From an uncultured Chloroflexia bacterium (GTDB taxonomy: Bacteria > Chloroflexota > Limnocylindria > Limnocylindrales > CSP1-4): a stretch of DNA of 64,000 bases. The position numbers and the translations under genes were made by a program. Location: assembly GCA_963752475.1 (NCBI GenBank), contig CAVVYR010000004.1:192001-256000 (forward strand). Direction: 5' to 3'. This document shows, piece after piece, positions 46,720-59,800 of the stretch (within the stretch, counting starts at the first letter, position 1; each line of letters opens with the position of its first letter). Under the pieces are notes generated by a model. It ran no database searches. It worked only from the letters and a program-made list of their open reading frames with translations, and was not told the origin of the DNA.

Positions 46720-49700
46720 TCAACCGACCTCGGGGAACTCGCGCTCGGCGGTCTTCTGGACGTCCGCGATGGCGGCGAACGAGCCACGCAGCAGCTCACG
46801 CTGCATCGCCGTCAGAGATGACAACTCCACCACGGAGGTCGGCTCACGCCCGGCGCGCACGTCCTCGAGCTGCGCCTGCAGGCGCAGGCCCATGAGGAAG
46901 TCGTAGGCATCGGTGATCTCTTCGAGGCTCCCCGCCGGCAGCAGCTGGCGATCGGCGAGCGCGATGATGCGGTCCATCGTGTGCGTGGCCACGATCCGCT
47001 GCCGCTCGGCGTAGACGCGAGCGAAAGCCACGATCGGCTGCAGCGCGTCCTTGAGATCGAACTTGCCGCTCGACTCGGAAGCCCCACCGAGGTAGATGTT
47101 CCCAGGCAGCCGCAGCGGCGGCCGGAACGAGAGCGCGTTGCGAGCCAGCAGGAACTGCACGCCCCGCTGCTCGGGCAGGGTGGCATGGACGTGCCGCCGC
47201 AACTCGCCGACCAGCGCGGCGTCACCCCGGATGAGCCGGAAGTCGAGGAAGATCGAGAGGTCGGTCAGGTCCTGCGCTTCGGCGTGCCGGAGCCAGGCGT
47301 CGTACGTCTCGATCCAGCTGGCCAGCGAGCGGCACCACTTGGCGTCGCCGGCCATGACCTGCCCGCGACACTCGGGGTAGCCCGCGGTGGCCAGCCCCTC
47401 ACCGACCCGTCGACCGAGCTCGAGGAACCACGACTGCAGCTCGTCCGCATCGGCCTCCTCGGGCAGGTCGTAGACCAACCCGGAGTCCTGGTCGCTGATG
47501 AGGTGGACCTCCCCCCTGCCCTGGCTGCCGAGTGCGAGCCAGGCGAAGGGCGCCGGCGCCGGTCCCATCGCCTCGAGCGCCAGCTCCAGGATCCGCACCG
47601 TGGCGGCATCGAAGACCGAGGTCAGCGTGCTGTTGACCGGGCGCGGCTTGGACGTCGAGCTCAGCAGGGTCGCCGCCAGCGAGACCGTGCGCTCGCACCG
47701 GCGCGCGACCTCCTCGACCGACGAAGCCCGCCCGATGTCCCGGAGTACCACCAGCGGCGCATAGCGCGGTGAGCGGATCAGCGCTTCCTTGTCGACGACG
47801 GCGGTGATGGCACCCGACGCGTCCTCCACCGCCAGATGCTTGACCCCGGCCGTCTCCATGTGCAGCAACGCCTCGTACACCGGCGCGCTCTGCGGCAAGC
47901 GGATGAGCGGTGCGGTCATGACGGTCTCGACCGGGTCGTCGACGGCCTTGCCCGCGGCCACGACGCGCGAGCGGATGTCGTGGTCGGTGACGATGCCGAT
48001 GGGTGCCCCGGAGCCGCTGGCCACGAGCGCTGCCGTGGCCCCGTGCTCGGTCATCGTGGTGGCCACGTCGCCCAGCCGCTCCTCCATGGGCACGACGATG
48101 GGCTCCACGCCCAGGGCCTCGATCGATTCGTGCAGGAAGAGCAACGAGGCCCGCAGCTGCTGGACCTCACGATCGGCCGCGCCGCCACGAGCGGCGGTCA
48201 CGTCAACCAGCAGGCCATCGATCCAGGCCGGCTCGTCCTCTTCATCGCGGATGAGCACGCCCGACAGCAGCACCGACCGCGGGCCTGACGGTGTGTCGAT
48301 GGCCAGGAACTGGTCGCGCACCTCACCCGTATCGAGCAACCGTCGGTAGGCACGCGCGTACTCGTCGGAGCTGGCGAAGCAATCGGCCAGGGCCAGCTGC
48401 CCCCCCTCCTCCACGGCCACCAGCGCGAGCAGCTCCCGCGCGGCCGGACTCAAGTCCACGAACACACCGCGTCTCGCGGCCACCGCCCGGAAGACCCCGA
48501 CCGATGAGCCGATGGCAGAGGCGTCCGAGCGGGCCGTCGCCGCCGCCGTCACGTCGCGGGCCAGCAGGATGTGGCCGGTCTGATCGCCGAACTCGACGGG
48601 CTCCAGCGTCAGCACGCACTCCACCGTCGAACCGTCCGAACGCGTCAGCAGGCCCTCGCGTGCGACGCCCAGCACGGCCGACTCGTGATCACCGTCATCG
48701 AGCAGCTCCCAGAGGGCCTCGTTGCCCTCGCGCGGCAGCACATCGACCGGCTCCAGGAAGTCCAGTTGTCGCGATCCGTATCCGAGCAGCTCGAGGAACG
48801 TGGGGTTGGCATATCGCAGGCGCCCATCGACCACGAGCAATGTGCCCTCCGACGTGGCCTCGACGAGAGCGTGATAGCGCGCGTTCGAGTCTCGCAGCCG
48901 CTCCACGCCCTCCTCGCGCCGACGCTCGATACGCAGCGACTGCTGCAGCACGAAGGCCAGCAGCAGGGCGATGACACCGCTGATGGCGAGGGCGGCCAGG
49001 AGCAGGTTCCGCTCGATGCGCTCGATCTCGGCCTGCACGTCATCGACGTACATGCCCGTGCCGATGACCCAATCCCAAGGCTCGAAGCCCTTGACGTACG
49101 ACTCCTTCGGCTCCAGCCGCTGGACATCGTCGAAGCGCTGGAAGACGTAGCCGACGTAGCCCTCGTCCTGCTCGTCGACGAGCTCCGCGAACTGGACGAA
49201 GATGGGCTCGCCGCGCGGGTCGGTGTAGTCGGAGATGTCCTCGCCCTCGAGGTCCGGCCGATACGGGTGCATGACCATCGTGGGCTCGGCATCCTGGATC
49301 CAGAAGTAGTCGAGCCGGTCCTCCCCGTAACGCAGCTCCGAGACCACGCCGGCGGCCGCCGCCTGCGCCTCCTCGCGGGTGAGGGTGCCGGCCCGTTCGT
49401 CGGCCTCATAGGCGGCGAGCACGCTCCAGGCCGAGTTCGTGAGCTCGCGGATCATCTCCCGCTTGCGCTCGACGAGCGACTCCTCGAACGAGGGCAGGAT
49501 CAGGCCCCAGAAGGCGATGAGGAAGAGCGCCAGCGCGGCCACCGCCGGGAGCACCACGCGCAGGACGAAGGGGCGACGACTGAGGCCTCCGGGGCTCCCC
49601 GGGGGCTCGGCCGAGGCAGGAGCGGCGGGGTCCCCGTCGCCCGGCGAGACCTTCGACGCCAGGCCCGGCCCATCGAGCACGGCCGCGCGGAATCGGACCC

Positions 49701-50394
49701 AGTCCTCGTGGGGCATCTCGATCCCCAGGGCCTCGCTACCGAGCCCGCGAACGGCGTGGTAGTCGGTGCCGCCGCTGACGAGGAGGTCGTGTCTGGCCGC
49801 CAGCGTACGGAGGGCCTCACGCTCCCCGGGCTCGAACTCTTCGTAGACCGCCTCGATACCGTCGAGCCCCTTGGCGCGCAGCTCGAGCACGAAGCGCTCA
49901 AGGTCGGCGATATCGCGTTCGTAGACGAGTGGGTGGGCCAGGAAGACCTTGCCGCCGGCACGGTGCAACAGGTCGATGGCGTCGCCGATCTCGAGACGAC
50001 CGTCAGGAGCGGCGCTGCCGTTCTCGTGGTGGTCGCCGCGGGTGCCCGCCGCCCGGATGGAGCCCTCGATGGACTGGGTGTCGGTCGAGCGATGAGCGCG
50101 GATCGAGGCCAGCGTCGCGGTGAGGTCGGGGTACTCGGGATCGAAGCCGTAGGCCACGAGGTGGATGACCCGCCCATCGTGCTGCGTCGTCAGCTCGATG
50201 CCCGGGAGGGAGGCCACACCTCGCGCGTCGAGCGCGTCACGGAACTCGGGCCAGCCAGCGATCGTGTCGTGGTCGCAGAGCGCCGCGAAGCGCACGCCGG
50301 CTTCGGCCAATCGCTTGGCCAGGGCAGCCGGTGCTAGCGCGCCATCGGAGTGGAGCGTGTGCGCGTGCAGGTTGAGGAAGACGCCGTCAGCCAT
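46720..50394 (-). CDS. PHP phosphoesterase - TM - Cache - TM - PAS - CBS pair - DUF294 nucleotidyltransferase - DUF294_C fusion protein
   Basis: PHP: NLHAHTLHSDG, LCDHDT, GIELT, FLAHP, LDGIE, GGTDYH. Cache: LRYG..DYFWI...MVMHP..P.LEG, KESYVKGFEPWDWVIGTGMY. PAS: YANPTFLELLGY. CBS: GIVTDHDI, VMTAP. NTase: WLALGSQGRGE...SDQDSGL, GYPECRGQVMA, IFLDFR; FDLK..LQPIV.FAR. Confidence 0.9.
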   Translation of the reverse strand: MADGVFLNLHAHTLHSDGALAPAALAKRLAEAGVRFAALCDHDTIAGWPEFRDALDARGVASLPGIELTTQHDGRVIHLVAYGFDPEYPDLTATLASIRAHRSTDTQSIEGSIRAAGTRGDHHENGSAAPDGRLEIGDAIDLLHRAGGKVFLAHPLVYERDIADLERFVLELRAKGLDGIEAVYEEFEPGEREALRTLAARHDLLVSGGTDYHAVRGLGSEALGIEMPHEDWVRFRAAVLDGPGLASKVSPGDGDPAAPASAEPPGSPGGLSRRPFVLRVVLPAVAALALFLIAFWGLILPSFEESLVERKREMIRELTNSAWSVLAAYEADERAGTLTREEAQAAAAGVVSELRYGEDRLDYFWIQDAEPTMVMHPYRPDLEGEDISDYTDPRGEPIFVQFAELVDEQDEGYVGYVFQRFDDVQRLEPKESYVKGFEPWDWVIGTGMYVDDVQAEIERIERNLLLAALAISGVIALLLAFVLQQSLRIERRREEGVERLRDSNARYHALVEATSEGTLLVVDGRLRYANPTFLELLGYGSRQLDFLEPVDVLPREGNEALWELLDDGDHESAVLGVAREGLLTRSDGSTVECVLTLEPVEFGDQTGHILLARDVTAAATARSDASAIGSSVGVFRAVAARRGVFVDLSPAARELLALVAVEEGGQLALADCFASSDEYARAYRRLLDTGEVRDQFLAIDTPSGPRSVLLSGVLIRDEEDEPAWIDGLLVDVTAARGGAADREVQQLRASLLFLHESIEALGVEPIVVPMEERLGDVATTMTEHGATAALVASGSGAPIGIVTDHDIRSRVVAAGKAVDDPVETVMTAPLIRLPQSAPVYEALLHMETAGVKHLAVEDASGAITAVVDKEALIRSPRYAPLVVLRDIGRASSVEEVARRCERTVSLAATLLSSTSKPRPVNSTLTSVFDAATVRILELALEAMGPAPAPFAWLALGSQGRGEVHLISDQDSGLVYDLPEEADADELQSWFLELGRRVGEGLATAGYPECRGQVMAGDAKWCRSLASWIETYDAWLRHAEAQDLTDLSIFLDFRLIRGDAALVGELRRHVHATLPEQRGVQFLLARNALSFRPPLRLPGNIYLGGASESSGKFDLKDALQPIVAFARVYAERQRIVATHTMDRIIALADRQLLPAGSLEEITDAYDFLMGLRLQAQLEDVRAGREPTSVVELSSLTAMQRELLRGSFAAIADVQKTAEREFPEVG

Positions 50395-50469: not shown

Positions 50470-52203
50470 TCAGCGCACACGCACGCGGATGGGCTCGCTG
50501 TCGGCCGGCCAGCGGTCGGTCGTACCGGGATAGCTCACCACGATGTCGTATCGGCCGGGCCCCAGCTCTCGCAGGGAAGCGGCGAAGCGCCCGTCCGCGT
50601 CGGTCGTCACCGTGCGCAGTGACACCGGACGCGTCGCGAACCAGATGTTCTCGCGCTGCGTCTCCTGACCGCTTTGGTCGAAGAAGATGAGTGAGACGTA
50701 GCCCGAACCAAGTGCCTTCGCCGGCACGTCGAGCGTGGCTGCGAACTCGAACCTGGCGCCCGACCGGACCTTGAAGCGCGCGCCGTCGACCATGAGGGTC
50801 TCATGAGGTTTGGCCTTGATGCGCATCGCGGGCCCGTCCTCGTTGGTCACGGCACTGGCCACCCCACTGCCGTAGGACCCCCAGCTGTCGAGGCCGCGCG
50901 AGAAGCGCGCGTTGGGCACCCTGTTCTTGCCCGTGCCCTCCTTGTAGCTGACCTCGGAGATGCGCACATCGACCGGTGATGGCGTTCCGCCCTCGGTGTT
51001 GGCTCGGACCGCGATGAGCGCCTTCCTCGCCGCTTCGGGCACGACACCGCTGAAGCGATGGCGCTGCCTGGCCCTGCCGATGGGCTCAGCCGTCAGGGTG
51101 AGGCGTTCACCGGCCACCGGCAGGTCGGCGGTGGTCGCCATCCGGCCCTCGATGCGCATGGCCTGGATGGCCCGGGCCTTGAGCGCGGTCCGCTCGCCGA
51201 AGTACTGCTTCACGCGTCCGCTCGAGGTGTTCAGGTCGTCGTCCGGGAGGGTCCGGTCGGGCTGGCTGTGCCACGACCACAGGCCGGCCATCTGCGGCGT
51301 CCCGCCATGCACCTGCTCGTACCTCACCGCGTGTGCCATCTGCTGTTCGAGCCACGTGTCGTTCTGCCGCGAGTCCTCGCTGCCCAGGTAGAGCATGCCG
51401 AAGGGGACCCCACGTGCATCGGCGAGGGCTTCGATCGCCATCACGCGCTCCGGCCAGTCCTCGATGCGCCAGTCGACATCGATGTTGAGGAACGCGAGGG
51501 GCTCTCCCGTTCGCGCCTCCCATGTGTCCAGCCAGGTGGCGAAGTCACGCTCGGAGAGGTAGAGATGGCTGACGACCGGCTCGATCGACCCGACCGCGAT
51601 GCCCGGGAAGTACCGCCGCACCTCCCCGACCCAGGCCCAGACCTCATCGACCACCTCCTCTACGGTGTACCCGCAGGCACGGAGGCCAGCGTAGACGTGC
51701 CCGTTGGCGAAGGGCTGGTCGAGGGTGAGGTAGTCGAGCCGCCCACCCAGCCGGTGGATGCGCTCGATCTCGATGAGGTCGTACGGCCCCTCCATCGACT
51801 CCCGGTGGTCGCACACATCAGCGCCCTTCCAGGTCAATGGCTCCACCTCCAGCCCGAGCGGCAACTCGTGCTCGTCCAGCCAGGCGAACAGCTCGCGCAG
51901 CTGCTCGTCGGTCGCGCTGTAGCGGAACATCCAGGCGTGCATATGGAAGGCGTCGATCTGCTGAGCGACCTCCCGCCAGGGCGCATCGTCCGCCCACAGG
52001 TCCCAGTAGTCGTCCGCGCCATCTGGCAACGGGTAGTGGGAGATCTCGTCCGGCAGCGGTGGGACCGGCTGATATGAGACGAACGGCGCGTCCGAGAAGT
52101 CGAGCGCTTCATCCTCCTCCACCTGCGCCACGGCCGGCACCGCGACCGATGAACCGAGCAGGACCGTGGCGACCAGCGCCATGAGCGACCGCGTCTTGAC
52201 CAT
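50470..52203 (-). CDS. Secreted hypothetical protein: TIM-barrel/glycosidase-like N-domain, carbohydrate-binding-like and Ig-like C-domains
   Basis: AAGGAG RBS and signal peptide; LDQPF, VGSIEP, FLNIDVDW, WSWHSQP; NRVPNARFSRGLDSW; TVTTDADGRF...PGRYDIVVSYPG. Confidence 0.7.
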   Translation of the reverse strand: MVKTRSLMALVATVLLGSSVAVPAVAQVEEDEALDFSDAPFVSYQPVPPLPDEISHYPLPDGADDYWDLWADDAPWREVAQQIDAFHMHAWMFRYSATDEQLRELFAWLDEHELPLGLEVEPLTWKGADVCDHRESMEGPYDLIEIERIHRLGGRLDYLTLDQPFANGHVYAGLRACGYTVEEVVDEVWAWVGEVRRYFPGIAVGSIEPVVSHLYLSERDFATWLDTWEARTGEPLAFLNIDVDWRIEDWPERVMAIEALADARGVPFGMLYLGSEDSRQNDTWLEQQMAHAVRYEQVHGGTPQMAGLWSWHSQPDRTLPDDDLNTSSGRVKQYFGERTALKARAIQAMRIEGRMATTADLPVAGERLTLTAEPIGRARQRHRFSGVVPEAARKALIAVRANTEGGTPSPVDVRISEVSYKEGTGKNRVPNARFSRGLDSWGSYGSGVASAVTNEDGPAMRIKAKPHETLMVDGARFKVRSGARFEFAATLDVPAKALGSGYVSLIFFDQSGQETQRENIWFATRPVSLRTVTTDADGRFAASLRELGPGRYDIVVSYPGTTDRWPADSEPIRVRVR

Positions 52204-52295
52204 CGCGCTCTCCTTCGTGCCACGGCCGGGGCGACCGAGGAGCGCCAAACACTAGCGAGCAGGTGCCAGAACGACAACCGGGCGGCCGACCGTCG

Positions 52296-52334
52296 CCGAC
52301 AGCGGACTGAAAGCACCGACAGCGGACTGAAAGC
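52296..52334. repeat. Perfect 19-bp direct repeat CCGACAGCGGACTGAAAGC x2 in a divergent promoter region
   Basis: Copies at 52296-52314 and 52316-52334. Confidence 0.85.
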
Positions 52335-52506
52335 GCTCCCAACCGCACCGATGGACCGGAGTGGGCCAGACCGGCCCATCCGGTTCGGGGCCACATGGCC
52401 CTATCAGCGCCCGTCGGCGCAGGCGTTAGGTGGAGTCATCACCGCGCGACACGCAGGCGGCTCGCCGGCCGTCCGTGACGCGGGGTTGATTCGTGAGGGA
52501 GCACGA

Positions 52507-53040
52507 ATGACTACCGTGACGGAGACCACGGACGGGGGGATGGTGGACCAGGATTCCCTCGATCGCATCATCGCTTCACAGGCTGGTCGACCGGGTGCCC
52601 TGCTGGGCATCCTGCAACGGCTCCAGGAACAGAGCCAGAACAAGTACCTGCCGATGGGCACGCTCGAGTACGTGGCCAAGCGCACCGGCATCCCCCAGTC
52701 GCAGGTCTTCTCCGTCGCGTCCTTCTACTCCCTCTTCAACCTCGAACCGCAGGGCGACCACATCGTGGCCATCTGCCGCGGCACGGCCTGCCACACCCGC
52801 GGCTCGCGCCCGCTGCTGCAGCGTGTGAAGCTGCAGCTGGGCCTGCGTGACGCCGGCATCGACGCCGACAAGGTCAGCCTGACCACGCCGGACCTCGGCT
52901 TCACCGTGCGCACGGTGGCTTGCTTCGGACAGTGCGCGCTGGCGCCGGTGGTCGAAGTCGACCACGCCATCCGCGGACACGTCACCGAACAGGCCCTCAT
53001 CCGCGAGGTCGAGACACTCCGAAAGCGAGGCGGCCGATGA
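52507..53040 (+). CDS. hoxE: NuoE/HoxE-like [2Fe-2S] subunit
   Basis: VASFYSLF, ICRGTACH, VACFGQCALAPVV. Confidence 0.9.
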   Translation: MTTVTETTDGGMVDQDSLDRIIASQAGRPGALLGILQRLQEQSQNKYLPMGTLEYVAKRTGIPQSQVFSVASFYSLFNLEPQGDHIVAICRGTACHTRGSRPLLQRVKLQLGLRDAGIDADKVSLTTPDLGFTVRTVACFGQCALAPVVEVDHAIRGHVTEQALIREVETLRKRGGR

Positions 53041-56000
53041 GGATCGCCGATCTCGCCGAGTTCAACGCCGTCCGCGAAACCGGCCTGGCCAAGCTCACGC
53101 CCGATCGTCCGCGCATCGCGGTGGGCATGGGCACCTGCGGGAGCGGGAACGGCGCCGAAGGCGTTCACACCGCCTTCAAGTCGGCCATCGAGGCCCGGGG
53201 CCTGGATATCTCGCTCGCGCCCGTCGGCTGCTTCGGCTTCTGCGCCGAGGAACCCATCGTCAACGTCTGGGTGCCCGGCCAGCCGCTGCTCATGCTGAGG
53301 CGCGTCCAGCCCGAGCACGTCGACCACATCCTGGAGGCCGTCGAGCGCGGCGTGCTCCCGACCGCCGAGCTCATCCTGTGCAAGATCGAGGAGTGGGACC
53401 ATCTCACCGGGCACGTGCGCTACGGCACCGGCTACGAAGACATCCCGTCCTGGGACGAGATCCCCTTCTTCGAGGGCCAGCTGAAGATCGCCCTGCGCAA
53501 CTGCGGCCTCATCAGCCCTGACGACATCGAGGAGTACATCGCGGTCGGCGGCTACCAGGCGCTGTACAAGGTATTGATCGATGACAACCCCGCGGGCGTC
53601 GTGGAGTCGATCAAGGCAGCCAAGCTGCGCGGTCGCGGCGGCGCCGGCTTCCTGACCGGTATCAAGTGGGAGTTCCTGGCCAAGGCCCCGGGCCCGGAGA
53701 AGTACCTCATCTGCAACGCGGACGAGGGCGATCCCGGCGCCTACATGAACCGCAACGAGATCGAGTCGGACCCGCACGCGCTGATCGAGGGCATGGTCAT
53801 CGCGGGCTACGCCACCGGTGCCAGCAACGGCATCATCTATGTCCGCGCCGAGTACCCCATCGCGGTCATGCGCCTGGAGCGCGCAGTGGCTCAGGCTCGG
53901 GCCTACGGCATCGTGGGCACGGACGTCATGGGTCGTGGCTTCGACTTCGACATCCAGATCGTCGAGGGTGCGGGAGCCTTCGTCTGCGGCGAGGAGACCG
54001 CGCTCATCGCCTCGCTCGAGGGCAAGGCCGGCCGGCCTCGGCCGCGTCCGCCGTTCCCGGCCCAGAAGGGCCTCTACGGCAAGCCCACCAACATCAACAA
54101 CGTCGAGACCTGGTACAACGTCGCGCCCATCGTAGCCAAGGGAGCTGCCTGGTTCAGCGACACCGGCTCGGCCAAGAGTGCCGGCACCAAGGTCTTCTCG
54201 CTGGTCGGCAAGGTCAGGAACACGGGCCTCGTCGAGATGCCCCTGGGGACCCCGCTATCCAAGTTCATCTACGACGTCGGCGGCGGCGCCCCGGGTGGAC
54301 GCGAGATCAAGGCCGTGCAGACGGGCGGACCGTCCGGTGGCTGCATCCCGATCGACCTCTTCGACACCCCGGTCGACTACGAGACGCTGGCCCAGCTGGG
54401 CTCGATCATGGGCTCGGGCGGCATGGTCGTGCTGGACGAAGACAACTGCATGGTCGACGTCGCCCGCTACTTCGTGGAGTTCACCCACTCCGAGTCGTGC
54501 GGCAAGTGCGTGCCCTGTCGCGTAGGCCTCGACAAGGCCCTGGCTATGCTCGACGGTTTCACCCACGGCACGGCCACGCTCGAGGACCTCGACGCCCTCG
54601 ACGAGCTCTGTCGCATGACTCGCGACATGAGCCTCTGCGCCCTTGGCGGGAGCGCACCAAACCCGGTGCTCACGAGCCTGCGGCACTTCCGCCACGAGTT
54701 CGAGGACCACGTCCTCGCGAAGCGCTGTCGTGCCGGTGTCTGCGAGGACCTCGCACTCAGCCCGTGCGAGAACTCGTGCCCGCTGCACATGAACATCCCG
54801 CGCTTCCTGCAGTTGTACAAGGAGGATCGACTCGAGGAGGCCTTCCTGTCCGTGGTGCTGGACAACCCGCTGCCGGCCTCGACCGGTCGCGTCTGCCAGC
54901 ATCCTTGTGACGATCGCTGCCGGCGCGAGGCCATCGACGAAGCCGTGAACATGCGCGAGGTCCATCGCGCCATCGCCGACCAGGTCTACCTGACCGACCG
55001 CTTCGAGCCCCTCGTGGCCCGAGTGCTCGAACAGAAGATGCCGGCCAGCGGCAAGCACGTCGCGGTCGTCGGCGCCGGCCCGACCGGCCTCACCTTCGCC
55101 TACTACATGGCCCTGCGCGGCCACGAGGTCACCTGCTTCGACTCTCGGCCGGCCGCCGGCGGCATGCTCCGCTACGCCCTGCCCGAGTACCGCCTGCCAC
55201 AGGCTGTGCTGGACAAGGAGATCGAGCTCATCGAGCGCACCGGTGTCACGTTCCGCTTCGGCGTCGAGGTCGGAAAGGACGTCAGCCTCAACGAGGTCGA
55301 CGAGGAGTTCGACGCCGTGTTCCTTTCGATCGGCACCTGGAAGGAAGCCTGGGTCCACCTCGCCGGAACCGAGTTGACCGGCGTCGTCCCGGCACTCCCC
55401 TTCCTCGAGTCCATGGCCCGCGAGGAGGATGTTCCGGTGGGCCGCAACGTCGTGGTCATCGGTGGCGGCAACGCGGCCGTCGACTCGGCCCGGTCCGCCC
55501 GCCGCCTGGGCGCTGACGTGACCATCGTCTATCGCCGCGAGCGCAAGGACATGCCGGCCATCGAGGAAGAGGTCGTGGCGGCTGAGCACGAGGGCGCGAA
55601 GATCGCCTATCTGCAGGCGCCCAACCGCATCATCGGCAACGCCGAGGGGAAGGTCCGGGCCATCGAGGTCGAGCGCACGCGCCCCGGTGAGTTCGACGAG
55701 TCTGGCCGACGCCGACCGGTCCCGACCGGCGAGATCATGCGCATCGAGTGCGACACCGTGATCCTCGCGGTCGGCGAGCGTGTCGACCCCGACTTCGCCG
55801 ATGCCTCCGGGCTGCGGCTCAACGACGACGAGGAGACCCTCGAGGTCGACCGCTACTCGCTCGAGACCAGCCGTGACCGCTTCTACGCCGGTGGCGACCT
55901 CATCACCGGCGCTTCGAACGTCTCGAACGCCATGGGCATCGGCAAGAAGGCCGCGCGCAACATCGACCGGCGCCTGATGGACCGGCTCACGCCCAGCGTG

Positions 56001-56192
56001 CTGCCCGAGTTCATCTACCAGATGGAGCCACCCGATCCACCCGCGGAGGGCGGCCGCAACACCCCTGCCGAGCTCCCGGCCGACGAGCGGGTCCGCTCGT
56101 ACGCCGAGGTCTCGACCGGGTTCACACCCCAGGTCGCGCTCGACGAGGCGCACCGCTGCCTGCGCTGCGACATCCGCAGTGTCGAGTCCTAG
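53037..56192 (+). CDS. hoxF: NuoF/HoxF diaphorase subunit fused to a GltD/NfnB-like FAD-NAD(P)H oxidoreductase
   Basis: N-terminal thioredoxin-like FeS (GTCG..GCFGFC); LRGRGGAGF, NADEGDPGAYMNR, GAGAFVCGEETAL, GGPSGG, ESCGKCVPCR; then PCENSCP, GRVCQHPC..RC, VVGAGPTG, VIGGGNAA, YRR, AGGD, EAHRCLRC. Confidence 0.92.
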   Translation: MRIADLAEFNAVRETGLAKLTPDRPRIAVGMGTCGSGNGAEGVHTAFKSAIEARGLDISLAPVGCFGFCAEEPIVNVWVPGQPLLMLRRVQPEHVDHILEAVERGVLPTAELILCKIEEWDHLTGHVRYGTGYEDIPSWDEIPFFEGQLKIALRNCGLISPDDIEEYIAVGGYQALYKVLIDDNPAGVVESIKAAKLRGRGGAGFLTGIKWEFLAKAPGPEKYLICNADEGDPGAYMNRNEIESDPHALIEGMVIAGYATGASNGIIYVRAEYPIAVMRLERAVAQARAYGIVGTDVMGRGFDFDIQIVEGAGAFVCGEETALIASLEGKAGRPRPRPPFPAQKGLYGKPTNINNVETWYNVAPIVAKGAAWFSDTGSAKSAGTKVFSLVGKVRNTGLVEMPLGTPLSKFIYDVGGGAPGGREIKAVQTGGPSGGCIPIDLFDTPVDYETLAQLGSIMGSGGMVVLDEDNCMVDVARYFVEFTHSESCGKCVPCRVGLDKALAMLDGFTHGTATLEDLDALDELCRMTRDMSLCALGGSAPNPVLTSLRHFRHEFEDHVLAKRCRAGVCEDLALSPCENSCPLHMNIPRFLQLYKEDRLEEAFLSVVLDNPLPASTGRVCQHPCDDRCRREAIDEAVNMREVHRAIADQVYLTDRFEPLVARVLEQKMPASGKHVAVVGAGPTGLTFAYYMALRGHEVTCFDSRPAAGGMLRYALPEYRLPQAVLDKEIELIERTGVTFRFGVEVGKDVSLNEVDEEFDAVFLSIGTWKEAWVHLAGTELTGVVPALPFLESMAREEDVPVGRNVVVIGGGNAAVDSARSARRLGADVTIVYRRERKDMPAIEEEVVAAEHEGAKIAYLQAPNRIIGNAEGKVRAIEVERTRPGEFDESGRRRPVPTGEIMRIECDTVILAVGERVDPDFADASGLRLNDDEETLEVDRYSLETSRDRFYAGGDLITGASNVSNAMGIGKKAARNIDRRLMDRLTPSVLPEFIYQMEPPDPPAEGGRNTPAELPADERVRSYAEVSTGFTPQVALDEAHRCLRCDIRSVES

Positions 56193-56201
56193 GAGGCCGT
56201 C

Positions 56202-56909
56202 GTGAACGACAAGGTCATGGTCCGTATCGACGGTGAGGTGATCTCGGCCACCGCGGGACAGAGCGTCCTCCAGGTCGCGCGGGAGAACGGCAAGTACATC
56301 CCGTCCCTCTGCTACATGGAGGGGATCTCGCCACAGGGCTCCTGTCGTCTGTGCATGATCGAGGTGCAGGGCGCCAAGAAGCTGCAACCTGCCTGCACGA
56401 CACCGGTGTCGGAAGGCTTGGCGGTGACGACCCACACCGCGCAGCTCGCGGGCTACCGCAAGATGGCCCTGGAGTTGCTCTTCGCCGAACGCAACCACAT
56501 CTGCGCGGTGTGCGTCAGCTCCGGGCACTGCGAGCTGCAGTCGCTGGCGCAGGAGCACGGCATGACCAACACGCGCTTCGACTACAGCTTCCCCAACTAC
56601 ACGCCTGACACCTCGCACCCGCGCTACGTCTTCGACCCCAACCGCTGCGTGCTCTGCGCTCGCTGCGTGCGCACCTGTGCCGAGATCGAGGGCGCACACG
56701 TGTGGGACATCGCCGGACGAGGCGTGGCCTCCGGACCGGTGACGGAGCTGCAACGACCGTGGGGTGAAGCGATGAGCTGTACCAGCTGCGGCAAGTGTGT
56801 CCAGGCCTGTCCGACCGGCGCGCTGGCCGAGAAGGGCTGGGCCGTGGAGGAGATGACCAAGCAGAAGAGCGTCGTGAGCACCCTCGACACCATGCGCAGG
56901 GGCCAGTGA
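56202..56909 (+). CDS. hoxU: HoxU (NuoG N-terminal-like) FeS subunit
   Basis: IPSLC, GSCRLC, PAC, RNHICAVC.SSGHCELQ, RCVLCARCVRTC, CTSCGKCVQACPTGAL. Confidence 0.93.
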   Translation: MNDKVMVRIDGEVISATAGQSVLQVARENGKYIPSLCYMEGISPQGSCRLCMIEVQGAKKLQPACTTPVSEGLAVTTHTAQLAGYRKMALELLFAERNHICAVCVSSGHCELQSLAQEHGMTNTRFDYSFPNYTPDTSHPRYVFDPNRCVLCARCVRTCAEIEGAHVWDIAGRGVASGPVTELQRPWGEAMSCTSCGKCVQACPTGALAEKGWAVEEMTKQKSVVSTLDTMRRGQ

Positions 56910-57451
56910 TGGAACAGGAAGTGCAGAAGGCCACGATCGGGACCTGCTGGCTCGACGGCTGCTCCGGCTGTCACATGTCGCTGCTGGACATGGACGAAGC
57001 CATCGTCGACGTGCTGGCCAAGGCCGACATCGTGTTCGGCCCGCTCGTCGATGCCCAGGAGTGGCCCGAGGGCGTCGACGTCGCGGTCATCGAGGGTGCG
57101 GTGTCGAGCCAGGATGACCTCGATCTCTTGACCGAGGCTCGTGAACGCTCGTCGATCGTGGTGGCTCTGGGCGACTGCGCAGTCACCGGCAACGTGCCCA
57201 CGATGCGCAACGGCATCCCCACGCGCTCGCTGCTCGAACAGATCTACGTCGACTCGGTCGACGAGCAGCCGCAGATCCCCACCGTCGGGGTGCCGCCGCT
57301 GCTCAAGCAGGCAGAGCCGCTCCAGGCCCACGTCAAGGTCGATGTCCACGTGCCGGGCTGCCCGCCCAGTGCCGAGTCGATCCTCTACGTCATCAGTGAG
57401 CTACTGGAGGGCCGCGTGCCCGACCTCGGCTCGAAGCAGCGATTCGGCTAG
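56909..57451 (+). CDS. hoxY: [NiFe] hydrogenase small subunit HoxY
   Basis: WLDGCSGCHMS, IEGAV, ALGDCAVTGNVP, VPGCPP; short single-cluster type. Confidence 0.93.
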   Translation: MEQEVQKATIGTCWLDGCSGCHMSLLDMDEAIVDVLAKADIVFGPLVDAQEWPEGVDVAVIEGAVSSQDDLDLLTEARERSSIVVALGDCAVTGNVPTMRNGIPTRSLLEQIYVDSVDEQPQIPTVGVPPLLKQAEPLQAHVKVDVHVPGCPPSAESILYVISELLEGRVPDLGSKQRFG

Positions 57452-57461
57452 GAGGCCGAGC

Positions 57462-58883
57462 ATGGCGACGATCAACATCCCCCACGTCTCGCGCATCGAG
57501 GGTCATGCCTCCATCACCATCGACCTCGACGAATCCGGGAACGTGGCCGACACGCAGTTCTCGGTCACCCAGATCCGTGGCTTCGAGAAGTTCGTGGCCG
57601 GCCGGCCGTACTACGAGATGCCCTCCATCACCGCGCGCATCTGTGGCATCTGCCCGGTGTCGCACCTGCTGGCCTCGTCCAAGGCGTGTGATGAGATCAT
57701 GGCCGTGCGCGTCCCGCCGACCGCGGCCAAGCTGCGCGAGCTGCTGCACATGGCGCAGATCGTGCAGTCACACGCGCTCTCCTTCTTCCATCTGTCCGCG
57801 CCCGATCTGCTGCTGGGCATGGACTACGACCCCAAGCTGCGCAACGTGGCCGGGCTGCTGGCCAAGCACCCGGCGGTGGTGCAGGACGGCGTGCGGCTAC
57901 GGAAGTTCGGCCAGCAGGTCATCGAACGCCTGGGTCGCGAGCGCGTGCATCCCTCGTGGACCGTGCCCGGTGGCGTGAACTCCGAGCTCGATCCCCAGGC
58001 TCGCGAGAAGACCCTCGAGGAATGGGACGAAGCGCTGGACATCGTGCAGCGCACCCTGGAGCTGTGGAAGGGCACCATCAATTCCTTCCCCGAGGAGGTC
58101 GCCACCTTCTCGAACTTCCCCTCGATGTTCTGCGGCACGGTCTCGCCCGATGGCGATCTCGAGCTGTACGACGGGACGCTGCGCTTCCGTGACGCGGCCG
58201 GCGAGATCGTGGCCGACCACATCGAAGCGGCCGACTACGCCACCTACATCGGCGAAGCGACGATGCGGGACTCGTACCTGAAGGCGCCGTACTACAAGCC
58301 GTTGGGCCTCGATGAAGGCGTCTACCGCGTGGGGCCGATGGCGCGCCTCAACGTCTGCGACCGGATCTCGACACCCCTGGCCGATGCCGAGCTGCAGGAG
58401 CTGCGCCAGCGGCTAGGCCGCGTGGTGCCGAGCAGCTTCCACAATCACTACGCCCGGCTCATCGAAGCCCTCTACGGGCTGGAGCGCATGAAGCAGCTGC
58501 TCGAAGATCCCAGGATCCTCGACACCAAGGTGCGCGCACACGCCGGGGTCAACGACCTCGAGGGCGTGGGCATCATCGAGGCTCCTCGAGGCACGCTCAT
58601 CCACCACTACAAGGTCAATGACGACGGGGCCATGACCTGGGCCAACCTCATCGTCGCGACCGGGCACAACAACCTGGCCATCCGACGGGGCGTGCACGAC
58701 GTGGCCACTCACTTCATCGACGGCAAGGAGATCCGGGAGGGCGCGGTCAACCGCGTCTCGGCCATCGTCCGCGCCTTCGACCCGTGCCTCTCGTGCTCGA
58801 CACACCAACTGGGACAGGCCGCCATCGTGATGACGCTGCGGGGCCCCGACGGTGAGGTCCTCGACGAAAAGGGCACCGTCTAG
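57462..58883 (+). CDS. hoxH: [NiFe] hydrogenase large subunit HoxH (group 3d-like)
   Basis: SRIEGH, RGFEKF, L1 [21 protein letters not shown]2 [10 protein letters not shown] plus a 25-aa cleavable tail. Confidence 0.95.
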
Positions 58884-59254
58884 GCCCGATCGGGCGGCTG
58901 CTCACCCCGTGAGCGATCTCGACACATCTGCGCCCAGACCTGCCGTTCTTGCTCGTCCGGTGGACATGGGCGACAGCGGTGCTCACGCCGTGGGCAGAAC
59001 CTGACGATCTGCCGTCATCCAGGTCGAGATCGCCCACTCGGTGAGCAACCGGCGTGGGCGCCGGTCTAGACCCGTTCGTCCGCCGAGGATGCGGGCGCCC
59101 AAAGGTCGACCTGCGGGAGTCCTTCGATACCCAGCGTCTGTGACAACTCGCCGCAGTGGTAGGCCTCGTGAGCGGATCGTCGGAGTCGGCATGCGGGCAT
59201 GATGCGCACCGTCGTGATCGGACCGCCAGCCGGAGCGACCTCCGTCGCTGAGCG

Positions 59255-59800
59255 CTACAAGGTCTCGAGCGCCTGTCCCACGGTCAGGGCCTGGCTGAAG
59301 ACGCTGCTGGCGGCGGTCACGTTGCTGACCTTGTCGTCCACGTAGGTGATGTCGCGGCTCCCGGCCTGCTGCTGTGCGAAGCGGAAGGCCTCGAACTCGG
59401 GCTTCACATGTCCGATCGCATCCGAGACGTAGACCCGCTCGAACCGGCCGTCCAGTCCATAGCGAGCGAGGCGTGCCTGAAGCCAGTCGGTACGGTGGTT
59501 GCTGAGGAGCCAGATCGTCGCATCCGATCGCTGGACCCAGTCGAAGAGCGGCCCGGTCGCATAGCGCTCCTCCAGCTCGGCCGTAAGCGTCTCGCTGTCC
59601 GACCCCGGCGCGAACGTCTGCCACAGCTCCTCGACGCTCATCCGGCCCAGCCAGAACCGCTGACGGAGCCGCCCGTGCCAGGTCGCCACCGCCTCCCTTC
59701 GGTCCTGCCCGTTGCGCTCCGCGAGGTCGGCGATGAACGGCACCAGCGGGTTGGTGAAGATGACGCCGTGAACGTCGAGGACGATGAGGCGCTCAGACAT
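59255..59800 (-). CDS. HAD family hydrolase/phosphatase
   Basis: IVLDVHGVI, LLSNH, GHVKPE, YVDDKVSNV. Confidence 0.85.
   Translation of the reverse strand: MSERLIVLDVHGVIFTNPLVPFIADLAERNGQDRREAVATWHGRLRQRFWLGRMSVEELWQTFAPGSDSETLTAELEERYATGPLFDWVQRSDATIWLLSNHRTDWLQARLARYGLDGRFERVYVSDAIGHVKPEFEAFRFAQQQAGSRDITYVDDKVSNVTAASSVFSQALTVGQALETL

Follow-up and report, generated by a model that had tools for sequence, protein, structure and literature searches.

To our knowledge, all of the Bfu-type bifurcating enzymes known so far use ferredoxin as their low-potential partner, and they have been seen as tools of strict anaerobes. In those relatives whose structures have been solved, bifurcation takes place at a centre composed of an iron-sulfur cluster (B1), flavin mononucleotide (FMN) and a second cluster (C1): the NuoE-like domain carrying C1 swings, the low-potential electrons pass by way of clusters B3 and B4 to ferredoxin, and a Zn hinge carries the C-terminal domain (PMC11829005, PMC12018979). 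It is at this hinge that the B3/B4 domain of the B subunit, BfuB, is attached (PMC12018979). Here we describe an enzyme of a different build, encoded by a hoxEFUYH operon in a 64,000-nucleotide stretch of DNA from an uncultured Chloroflexia bacterium (positions 192,001 to 256,000 of contig CAVVYR010000004.1, assembly GCA_963752475.1; hereafter, the window). Its HoxF joins a NuoF-type half to a second flavin unit of the NfnL/GltD type and, to judge from its sequence and distribution, the predicted enzyme is real, intact and widespread, being a variant, linked to a [NiFe] hydrogenase, of a type of fused B subunit already noted in genomes.

The initial annotation of the window had considered a new architecture, but the fused B subunit as such has already been described from genomes. 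Zheng and Huang (2024) report a sub-type I BfuB in the A3 [FeFe] hydrogenases, in which B3/B4 is replaced by a DPD_II unit plus a domain for flavin adenine dinucleotide (FAD) and nicotinamide adenine dinucleotide or its phosphate (NAD(P)), and they postulate a new bifurcating mechanism for it (PMC11406978); of the group 3d HoxF in Hydrogenedentota, they hold that it is without two clusters and non-bifurcating. Greening et al. (2024) show that, in archaeal hybrid hydrogenases, HydB bears a GltA domain (PMC11216029), and the rule 'GltD but not NuoF' in the HydDB paper (PMC5037454) hints that such proteins had been noticed earlier. Because Schut et al. (2022) define BfuB by a ferredoxin-type dicluster domain, their search would miss the fused form; the terms GltD, NfnB, fused and fusion are absent from the main text of that paper (PMC9304861). 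For a fusion linked to HoxEFUYH or to a [NiFe] hydrogenase, we found no description in PMC open access and bioRxiv, although the supplements of PMC9304861 and PMC11406978 may list such proteins.

The operon occupies positions 52507-58883 of the window, with all five frames open and on the same strand:

52507..53040, + strand: hoxE, 177 amino acids, NuoE/BfuC-like, with the four cysteines of a predicted [2Fe-2S] cluster (C1); Pfam 2Fe-2S_thioredx, E 3e-36.
53037..56192, + strand: hoxF, 1051 amino acids, the fused flavoprotein, with a NuoF/BfuB-type half and an NfnL/GltD-type half.
56202..56909, + strand: hoxU, 235 amino acids, a conduit subunit with a predicted [2Fe-2S] and three [4Fe-4S] clusters; Pfam Fer2_4, NADH-G_4Fe-4S_3 and Fer4_Nqo3.
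56906..57451, + strand: hoxY, 181 amino acids, [NiFe] hydrogenase small subunit; Pfam Oxidored_q6, E 1e-31.
57465..58883, + strand: hoxH, 472 amino acids, [NiFe] hydrogenase large subunit; Pfam NiFeSe_Hases.

The genes are tightly packed (the E/F, F/U, U/Y and Y/H junctions being a 4-nucleotide overlap, a 9-nucleotide gap, a 4-nucleotide overlap and a 13-nucleotide gap), and their spacing is as expected of a co-translated operon. The C1 ligands of HoxE (C90, C95, C139 and C143) are invariant in all 29 of the HoxE proteins aligned; the protein matches Pfam PF01257 and, at 114.8 bits, falls below the cut-off of 224 of the NCBIfam HoxE model NF005747. HoxU scores 341.6 bits against its own NCBIfam model (NF005745), above the cut-off of 333. 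Both metal-binding motifs are present in HoxH, i.e., the N-terminal RxCGxCxxxH type and the C-terminal DPCxxCxxH type (here DPCLSCSTH), and they align with those of 7t2r_D and 5xf9_D; a 25-residue extension follows the motif histidine. By these motifs HoxH is predicted to be a [NiFe] hydrogenase of group 3 (Hox type), and its best match among solved structures is HydL of the bifurcating A. mobile NiFe-HydABCSL (7t2r_D; E 1e-154, 519 bits), ahead of the HoxH of a non-bifurcating soluble hydrogenase (SH) (5xf9_D; E 2e-117, 396 bits) and of MvhA (5odc_F; E 3e-108, 366 bits). Pfam finds no Fe_hyd_lg_C domain in the operon proteins.

HoxF itself is one stop-free frame of 1051 residues. Its NuoF part contains Complex1_51K (residues 192-363, E 1e-44), SLBB (387-435) and NADH_4Fe-4S (474-558, E 4e-30), which are the FMN, SLBB and 4Fe-4S features of BfuB (PF01512, PF10531 and PF10589), and its C-terminal part contains Fer4_20 (561-650, E 2e-20) and Pyr_redox_2 (674-967, E 1e-28). 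A NuoF core followed by a full GltD-like unit in a single frame is just what the initial annotation had proposed, and the motifs that it quoted (GDPGAYM, GGPSG, VVGAGPTG, GGGNAA and YRR) can all be read in the translation; of the thioredoxin-like iron-sulfur domain that it placed at the N-terminus, the domain is there but has three cysteines (C34, C65 and C69) rather than four. The AlphaFold2 model of HoxF has a mean predicted local distance difference test score (pLDDT) of 89.5 and a predicted template-modelling score (pTM) of 0.82. The parts of the protein are as follows:

53037..53366, + strand: residues 1-110, N-terminal thioredoxin-like domain (B5 position), with glycine at the position of the first cysteine, placed by alignments to 7t2r_B and 9n5u_B.
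53454..54713, + strand: residues 140-559, NuoF core with FMN/NAD(H) site, SLBB and a four-helix bundle holding the predicted [4Fe-4S] cluster B1 (C488, C491, C494, C534), from Pfam and 7t2r_B.
54447..54743, + strand: Zn (B2) hinge ligands C471, (T509), H558, C564 and C569, mapped by hand onto A. mobile C438, C476, H525, C531 and C536 (PMC9304861).
54765..54986, + strand: residues 577-650, Fer4_20 part of the NfnL-like unit, the predicted cluster-ligand region.
55056..55937, + strand: residues 674-967, FAD site (GAGPTG) and second Rossmann fold (GGGNAA...YRR), with predicted NADP(H) binding.
56145..56171, + strand: residues 1037-1045, E..RCLRCD motif at the C-terminus, also present after the NfnL-like module of StnC and C. 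saccharolyticus NfnA, with a predicted role in completing the distal cluster.

The ligands of B1 and of the Zn site were mapped by hand, through alignments to solved structures, onto residues named in PMC9304861 and PMC12018979. The N-domain shares its VGM..C pattern, in the alignment, with T. sibiricus NfnB, where the site holds Zn and not a cluster (PMC12018979).

The ferredoxin-type Fer4 dicluster domain (IPR017896) that would carry B3/B4 has no Pfam match in HoxF at E values up to 0.01; the initial annotation was right to call it missing from the expected position. But because the GltD-like unit brings two predicted [4Fe-4S] sites of its own to the missing domain's place, sitting exactly where the B3/B4 domain would be, 'replaced' fits better than 'absent': the first cysteine of the unit, C577, follows only 8 residues after the last Zn ligand, C569. 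The FAD-proximal cluster is predicted to be held by C581, C620, C624 and H643, which map onto C108, C147, C151 and K170 of C. saccharolyticus NfnA (PMC11829005), and we infer that the distal cluster is held by C577 and C628 together with C1041 and C1044 of the far C-terminus. R719 aligns with R201 of NfnB and R239 of StnC. A GxGxxA motif has been read as NADP(H)-specific (PMC7483475), and the C-terminal unit of HoxF is likewise presumed to be specific for NADP. When set against the description of the Bfu family (PMC9304861), the locus has the NuoF domains, the His and Cys ligands of B2/Zn, a BfuC-like HoxE and a BfuA-type HoxU, and lacks the C-terminal dicluster domain; the B2/Zn motif is not exclusive to the Bfu family, since it also occurs in short canonical HoxF.

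The two halves of HoxF have different closest relatives. For the NuoF half (residues 1-560), the best match among solved structures is HydB of A. mobile NiFe-HydABCSL (7t2r_B; E 3e-182, 610 bits), then NfnB of T. sibiricus (9n5u_B, 605 bits) and of C. saccharolyticus (9bov_B, 586 bits), followed by HydB of bifurcating [FeFe] hydrogenases and by StnB; formate dehydrogenase FdsB and the NuoF of complex I score far lower than these Bfu-type B subunits. Foldseek searches with the AlphaFold2 model, in which the halves were aligned separately and their packing was not addressed, return the same order of relatives for this half. For the GltD half (residues 560-1051), the strongest matches are the NfnL-like modules of C. 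saccharolyticus NfnA (9bov_A, E 2e-107), T. sibiricus NfnA (E 1e-97) and S. ovata StnC (8oh5_C, E 7e-95), followed by NfnL of NfnSL (5jca_L, E 3e-93; 4ylf_B, E 2e-77), GltD (about 1e-52) and DPD (E 2e-36). Alignments to 9bov_A and 8oh5_C reach residues 486-488 of the 492 in this half, including the RCLxC motif, and only the NfnA and StnC alignments cover the C-terminal tail.

A 1051-residue fusion in a metagenome-assembled genome (MAG) of 4.25 Mb (38 contigs, 88.8% complete, 5.8% contaminated) could in principle have been created by an assembly error or frameshift that joined two genes. In a collection of 5.8 billion proteins, from which 8000 candidates were scored, the best 120 relatives inspected are all fused (119 of them at 1049-1058 amino acids and one at 1010), with 77-91% identity over 97-100% of the query, and come from many contigs and sources; where named, they belong to MAGs of Limnocylindrales, Chloroflexota or Anaerolineae. 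A scan of one genome per species found a HoxF relative in at least 600 species genomes across many phyla, and the best 80 of at least 601 stretches, which we used for the analysis of context, all carry the fusion as far as their contigs reach. These 80 loci are mostly from Acidobacteriota, with others from Chloroflexota, Alpha- and Betaproteobacteria, Polyangiaceae, Hydrogenedentota, Omnitrophota, Bacteroidota, Spirochaetota, Verrucomicrobiota and Dehalococcoidia. In a library of representatives at 50% identity, 42,865 proteins match HoxF at E <= 0.001, and several distinct, full-length fused clusters are found within the best 150 representatives. Given in addition that ligands from both halves and from the far C-terminus are invariant, the chance of an artefact, which the initial annotation had named as a way for its reading to fail, is vanishingly small.

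Among the 80 loci, 76 have hoxE directly upstream of the fused hoxF (four begin at a contig edge), and 73 have a HoxU-like gene on its downstream side (seven end at such an edge). The downstream context falls into several classes: hoxY and hoxH are present in 38 loci, so that the fusion is indeed found next to hoxU and hoxYH elsewhere, as had been asked at the outset; in 15, the U-like part forms the N-terminus of a [FeFe] HydA of 585-590 amino acids (confirmed by Pfam in all three checked); another 15 have a trio of hoxE, fused hoxF and hoxU whose surroundings are free of hydrogenase genes for 3 kb or more, and in all five checked the trio is followed by accA and genes of unrelated function; and 12 are too short for their context to be called. 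The trio-only loci are L012, L014, L016-L020, L022, L031, L036, L037, L047, L049, L054 and L064, all from Acidobacteria. All five of the trio-only genomes that were searched carry a relative of HoxH elsewhere, at 53-55% identity, and in the three cases excised it sits in a canonical hoxEFUYH operon with a short HoxF that has the His/Cys hinge motif and ends right after it. Since HoxU is kept in the trios, a third partner for them is to be expected.

Ligand conservation was read from an alignment of 44 fused proteins, comprising the query, three database-search matches, five representatives from the 50%-identity library and 35 of the 80 loci, picked for a single full-length match and a spread of context. 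The four B1 ligands, the Zn-hinge ligands C471, H558, C564 and C569, and all seven cysteines of the NfnL-like unit (C1041 and C1044 included) are invariant in the 44 proteins, as are G809, G811, A814, R834 and R719, with R833 in 42. Position 509 is more variable (Thr in 31, Cys and Ser in five each, Ala in three), and in the N-domain, G30 is kept in 40, C34 in 42, and C65 and C69 in 43 each. The non-cysteine ligand at position 643 is His in 39 of the 44, Lys in P0123 and L075, and Glu in the divergent representatives P0132, P0135 and P0148. Because the corresponding ligand is Lys in Stn/NfnABC and Glu in NfnSL, His643 is a signature of the fused-HoxF family, and it offers a ready handle for mutagenesis.

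To place the fused proteins, a FastTree phylogeny of the NuoF core was built from 135 rows, in which the 44 fused proteins were joined by 86 of the 145 further representatives, three short HoxF from acidobacteria and two complex-I-type sequences. The 57 remaining representatives were omitted as fragments or for want of the hinge motif; support values are local only, and since the complex-I-type rows intended as outgroup fell inside the tree, no root is claimed. A branch with support of 100 has 39 fused proteins on one side. Within them, 11 of the 12 rows labelled [FeFe] group together (support 95), the twelfth, L080, having been labelled only from the low identity of a cut U part; a second group (support 99) unites the [NiFe]-linked rows with the trio-only ones, and the latter, seven in number, nest together as one unit (support 99). 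Just outside the fused clade, most of the neighbours are B subunits with a ferredoxin-type tail (support 81-97), the short acidobacterial HoxF being placed elsewhere. These neighbours, modest as their support is, make it less likely that the family arose when an NfnL unit was added onto a short HoxF; together with the scores of the core and of HoxH, which are best against the bifurcating A. mobile NiFe-HydABCSL, they speak against regarding the system as a canonical group 3d Hox enzyme with an add-on, as it had been introduced. Seven other fused representatives and L075 stand apart from the 39-row clade, which suggests that similar NuoF-GltD fusions arose more than once.

The reading that we tentatively favour, while not going so far as to call it probable, is that the operon encodes a ferredoxin-free, soluble, five-subunit [NiFe] hydrogenase of the Bfu/HydABCSL lineage that couples H2 to both NAD(H) and NADP(H). 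H2 would be split at HoxH, and HoxY and then HoxU would pass its electrons on to the B1-FMN-C1 centre that HoxF and HoxE make up between them, with NAD(H) bound at the FMN. In place of the ferredoxin-reducing 2x[4Fe-4S] domain, the NfnL-like unit (two [4Fe-4S] clusters, FAD and an NADP(H) site) would let NADP(H) take the role of ferredoxin, with electrons moving from HoxE C1 to the distal cluster and on to FAD; the distal cluster is expected near the position of B3 because so short a spacer separates the unit's first cysteine from the last Zn ligand. The reaction would be 2 H2 + NAD+ + NADP+ <-> NADH + NADPH + 2 H+, such that the energy released in the downhill step to NADH covers the cost of reducing NADP+ uphill and, in reverse, NADH and NADPH jointly drive the release of H2. 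Both the position of the unit in the complex and, with it, the path from C1 to FAD and the energetic coupling are things that we infer. A narrower version, which we hold with slightly less confidence, is that the B1-FMN-C1 centre of a [NiFe] hydrogenase splits the electrons of H2 between NAD+ (downhill) and NADP+ (uphill), with the NfnL-like unit and its His-ligated cluster, specific to the family, as the low-potential arm; this would be the first ferredoxin-independent case of Bfu-type bifurcation.

Several observations are in keeping with such coupling. The NuoF core and HoxH have the proven bifurcating enzymes as their closest solved relatives, the ligands of B1 and the Zn hinge (44 of 44 HoxF) and of C1 (29 of 29 HoxE) are all kept, and the added unit, with GxGxxA and YRR retained in 42-44 of the 44 proteins, is most like the module through which NADPH enters NfnABC/Stn. 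The joining of this unit to the core at the B3/B4 attachment point, the mostly ferredoxin-tailed neighbours of the fused clade in the tree and the separate, canonical hoxEFUYH that the genome also encodes are further points in its favour. With potentials of -280 mV for NAD, -380 mV for NADP and -414 mV for H2 at 1 bar (PMC9304861, Table 1), Nernst arithmetic gives an equilibrium H2 pressure of about 145 Pa for the coupled reaction, as against about 7 kPa if NADP+ were the sole acceptor and about 3 Pa if NAD+ were, values that fit a mid-potential donor between two acceptors. We also count in favour of coupling that an ungated wire joining both nucleotide sites would act as a free transhydrogenase and would be expected to collapse the gap between NADPH and NADH.

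Other observations weigh against this scheme. Were the distal cluster of the NfnL-like unit to touch HoxU instead of HoxE C1, NADP(H) would just be connected to the main chain. Because the canonical short HoxF enzymes, which have no C-terminal domain, possess both the His/Cys motif of the Zn hinge and a HoxE, these hallmarks do not prove bifurcation. The trios without hydrogenase genes, which make up 15 of the 80 loci, are left unexplained by a pure H2/NAD/NADP scheme; the tree is a FastTree phylogeny with local support whose outgroup rows are not outside; and Greening et al. (2024) expect ferredoxin and not NADP at the GltA domain of archaeal HydB (PMC11216029).

If both nucleotide sites lay on a single iron-sulfur wire, the enzyme would be an uncoupled, dual-cofactor hydrogenase that reduces NAD+ and NADP+ independently with H2, or oxidises either nucleotide, and acts as an NADPH:NAD+ transhydrogenase, with no bifurcation at all. 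The domains alone demand no more than this: the short canonical HoxF enzymes with HoxE share the Zn hinge and have no known bifurcation, the homologous FAD in Stn/NfnABC is a plain entry to a chain of clusters (PMC10482914, PMC12018979), and the stand-alone trios could be simple transhydrogenases. We nonetheless regard this alternative as rather doubtful, in that the tree surrounds the core with B subunits of the ferredoxin-tailed Bfu type, the unit hangs from the gated hinge at the C-terminus and not from the HoxU-type chain, and a transhydrogenase with two sites would not need the HoxU that the trios have kept. We also count against it that group 3b already provides soluble H2:NADP+ enzymes that are uncoupled and differently built.

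Two further alternatives, which we consider improbable, assign other roles to the added unit. Bifurcation might be centred on its FAD as in NfnSL, with the pair of electrons from NADPH being split so that the high-potential route leads to NAD+ at the FMN and the low-potential route to protons or ferredoxin. The unit is homologous to NfnL, as the matches to 5jca_L and 4ylf_B attest; a possible second, 'FAD' bifurcation centre is raised for the [FeFe] form in PMC11406978; and the arginine that shields the N5 of the FAD in NfnB (R201), for which an alignment had been proposed, is indeed kept as R719 in 44 of 44 proteins. But the same arginine lies 4-6 A from N5 in StnC and T. sibiricus NfnA, where the FAD is non-bifurcating. 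The FAD of the NfnL-like module of NfnABC/Stn has been shown not to bifurcate (PMC10482914, PMC12018979), and because the GltD-like unit of HoxF is nearer to this module than to NfnL (including an RCLxC tail that lies outside the NfnL alignments), a bifurcating FAD, as the initial annotation had entertained, becomes less likely. Moreover, the non-cysteine ligand is His and not the Glu of NfnL, and a search limited to the locus found no gene for an NfnS-like partner (PyrK-like, with FAD and [2Fe-2S]) in or beside the operon. Alternatively, the unit could be a docking or reducing site for some acceptor other than the NADP(H) pool, such as ferredoxin or flavodoxin at its clusters, or a partner like polysulfide or the large subunit of glutamate synthase. 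Members of the GltD family work with many different partners (PMC5736913), the two clusters of NfnL in NfnSL are a ferredoxin route (PMC10482914), and the expectation of Greening et al. for the archaeal GltA domain (PMC11216029) points the same way; against this, 42-44 of the 44 proteins retain a complete second Rossmann fold, GxGxxA and YRR included, and no gltB-like or sulfur-related gene adjoins the operon or occurs among the downstream genes checked in 12 related loci.

If the favoured coupling of H2 to NAD(H) and NADP(H) holds, the H2 pool would be tied directly to the balance of NADH and NADPH, and the Bfu mechanism would extend to a new pair of substrates. Abundant bacteria of soil, sediment and freshwater, Acidobacteriota and Chloroflexota among them, would then be able to use H2 at levels of roughly 100 Pa to form NADPH and, in reverse, to vent NADH and NADPH as H2 with no need for low-potential ferredoxin. 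The family of fused subunits serves [NiFe], [FeFe] and hydrogenase-free contexts alike and, even if the two sites were uncoupled, surveys that count such enzymes among the ordinary NAD-linked hydrogenases of group 3d, or among the bifurcating ones of A3, would give a false picture of the cofactors they use.

Contigs from RNA libraries (three libraries from three studies) match hoxE, both halves of hoxF, hoxU, hoxY and hoxH with 0-2 differences per 151-265 nucleotides; none of the pieces listed spans the NuoF/NfnL junction near position 54714, and DNA carry-over is possible, so that these matches do no more than hint at transcription of close relatives in sediments and salt marshes. A scan of positions 52100-59400 returned no promoter-like and two terminator-like sites, which is not above shuffled sequence. 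Divergent from the operon, on the - strand, are a 592-residue frame without a Pfam match (50470-52248) and a 1224-residue, multidomain sensor-like protein with PHP, Cache, PAS, CBS and DUF294 nucleotidyltransferase domains (46720-50394).

The genome of the window also encodes a canonical hoxEFUYH operon (C6:204159-208933; L096 159-4933), whose HoxF is 48% identical to residues 33-569 of the fused protein and whose HoxH is 53% identical; the fused enzyme is therefore a second, distinct hydrogenase. A HycI-type protease gene follows the canonical operon. Three near-identical copies of a further [NiFe] large subunit (C8:228672, C23:25641 and C24:30305, excised as L081-L083; best solved match MvhA, 5odc_F, E 9e-119) score equally and, given the contamination of the MAG, may reflect assembly redundancy or strain variants; HycI proteases lie beside two of the three. 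No maturation protease gene is found beside the fused operon, HycI-type genes occurring only near the other hydrogenases of this 88.8% complete genome. Additional GltD/NfnL-like modules, within frames of 856-922 amino acids and matching through the RCLxC tail, are located at C8:455202-458299 (adjoining a NuoF-like gene), C4:24954-26381 and C6:732747-734159, and possibly belong to Stn/NfnABC-like or formate-dehydrogenase-linked systems.

Some loci elsewhere show other arrangements. In a Dehalococcoidia MAG (L075:10022-11974), a HoxU-like part that comes after a separately evolved NuoF-GltD fusion is fused to a molybdopterin oxidoreductase domain (650 amino acids) and followed by hoxY and hoxH. 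In Hydrogenedentota (L043:11050-11586), hoxY and hoxH stand upstream of hoxE, the fused hoxF and hoxU, with a HycI-type maturation protease after hoxU. Three representatives (P0146, P0189 and P0219) are NuoF-NfnL fusions with about 120 extra C-terminal residues; because those of P0219 form a Fer4_7 dicluster (residues 999-1054), its NfnL unit has been inserted before a ferredoxin-type domain rather than replacing it.

Among known systems, both the NuoF half and HoxH find their closest solved counterpart in the A. mobile NiFe-HydABCSL (7T2R/7T30; PMC8880783), which has in common with the enzyme of the window a NuoE-like subunit, the Zn/B2 hinge ligands, the thioredoxin-like N-domain and the five-subunit layout. 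It differs in that its HydB ends in the ferredoxin-reducing B3/B4, where the window's HoxF has a predicted NfnL-like FAD/NADP(H) unit, in its long HydA as against a HoxU of 235 residues, and in having four rather than three cysteines in the N-domain. The sub-type I BfuABC of group A3 [FeFe] hydrogenases, described from genomes only (PMC11406978), shares the replacement of B3/B4 by DPD_II (Fer4_20) and an FAD/NAD(P) domain, and [FeFe]-linked members fall in the same 39-row clade as the window's HoxF, but its partner is a [FeFe] HydA and not HoxU with the [NiFe] HoxYH. The archaeal hybrid [FeFe]/[NiFe] hydrogenase with HydB and GltA likewise combines a NuoF-like diaphorase bearing a glutamate-synthase-like domain with a group 3 [NiFe] large subunit in the complex; it is distinguished by its archaeal origin, a fused HydA-HyhS subunit and two catalytic sites (PMC11216029).

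StnABC and NfnABC (8OH5, 9BOV, 9N5U; PMC10482914, PMC11829005, PMC12018979) bring together NuoE-, NuoF- and NuoG-like parts and an NfnL-like FAD/NADPH unit with the RCLxC tail. There, however, the unit is inserted in the NuoG-like A subunit, from where it supplies the mid-potential chain, B3/B4 are still present on the B subunit to serve ferredoxin, and no hydrogenase is part of the complex; the FAD-proximal cluster (A7) has Lys as its odd ligand, whereas the unit described here is on the B subunit and has His (39 of 44; Lys in two). NfnSL, GltD and DPD (5JCA, 4YLF, 6S6S, 1H7X) resemble the C-terminal unit in fold and cofactor set, with a Foldseek template-modelling (TM) score of 0.82 on the target for 5jca_L; unlike NfnSL, the locus has no NfnS partner, the first two cysteines of the distal cluster apparently come from the C-terminus and not the N-terminus, and His replaces Glu. 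Finally, the canonical HoxEFUYH of group 3d (for example the genome's own operon on C6 and those of Acidobacteriaceae in L090-L092, with the SH of H. thermoluteolus, 5XF9, as solved relative) have the same E-F-U-Y-H order, HoxU model and Zn-hinge motif, with HoxY and HoxH 52-55% identical to those of the window. A HoxF of 1051 amino acids with a Fer4_20 and FAD/NAD(P) unit does not conform to the canonical form of about 530-600 amino acids with a single FMN: canonical HoxF has one flavin and a four-cysteine N-domain and ends right past the Zn hinge, whereas here a further 482 residues add a predicted FAD, two clusters and an NADP(H) site.

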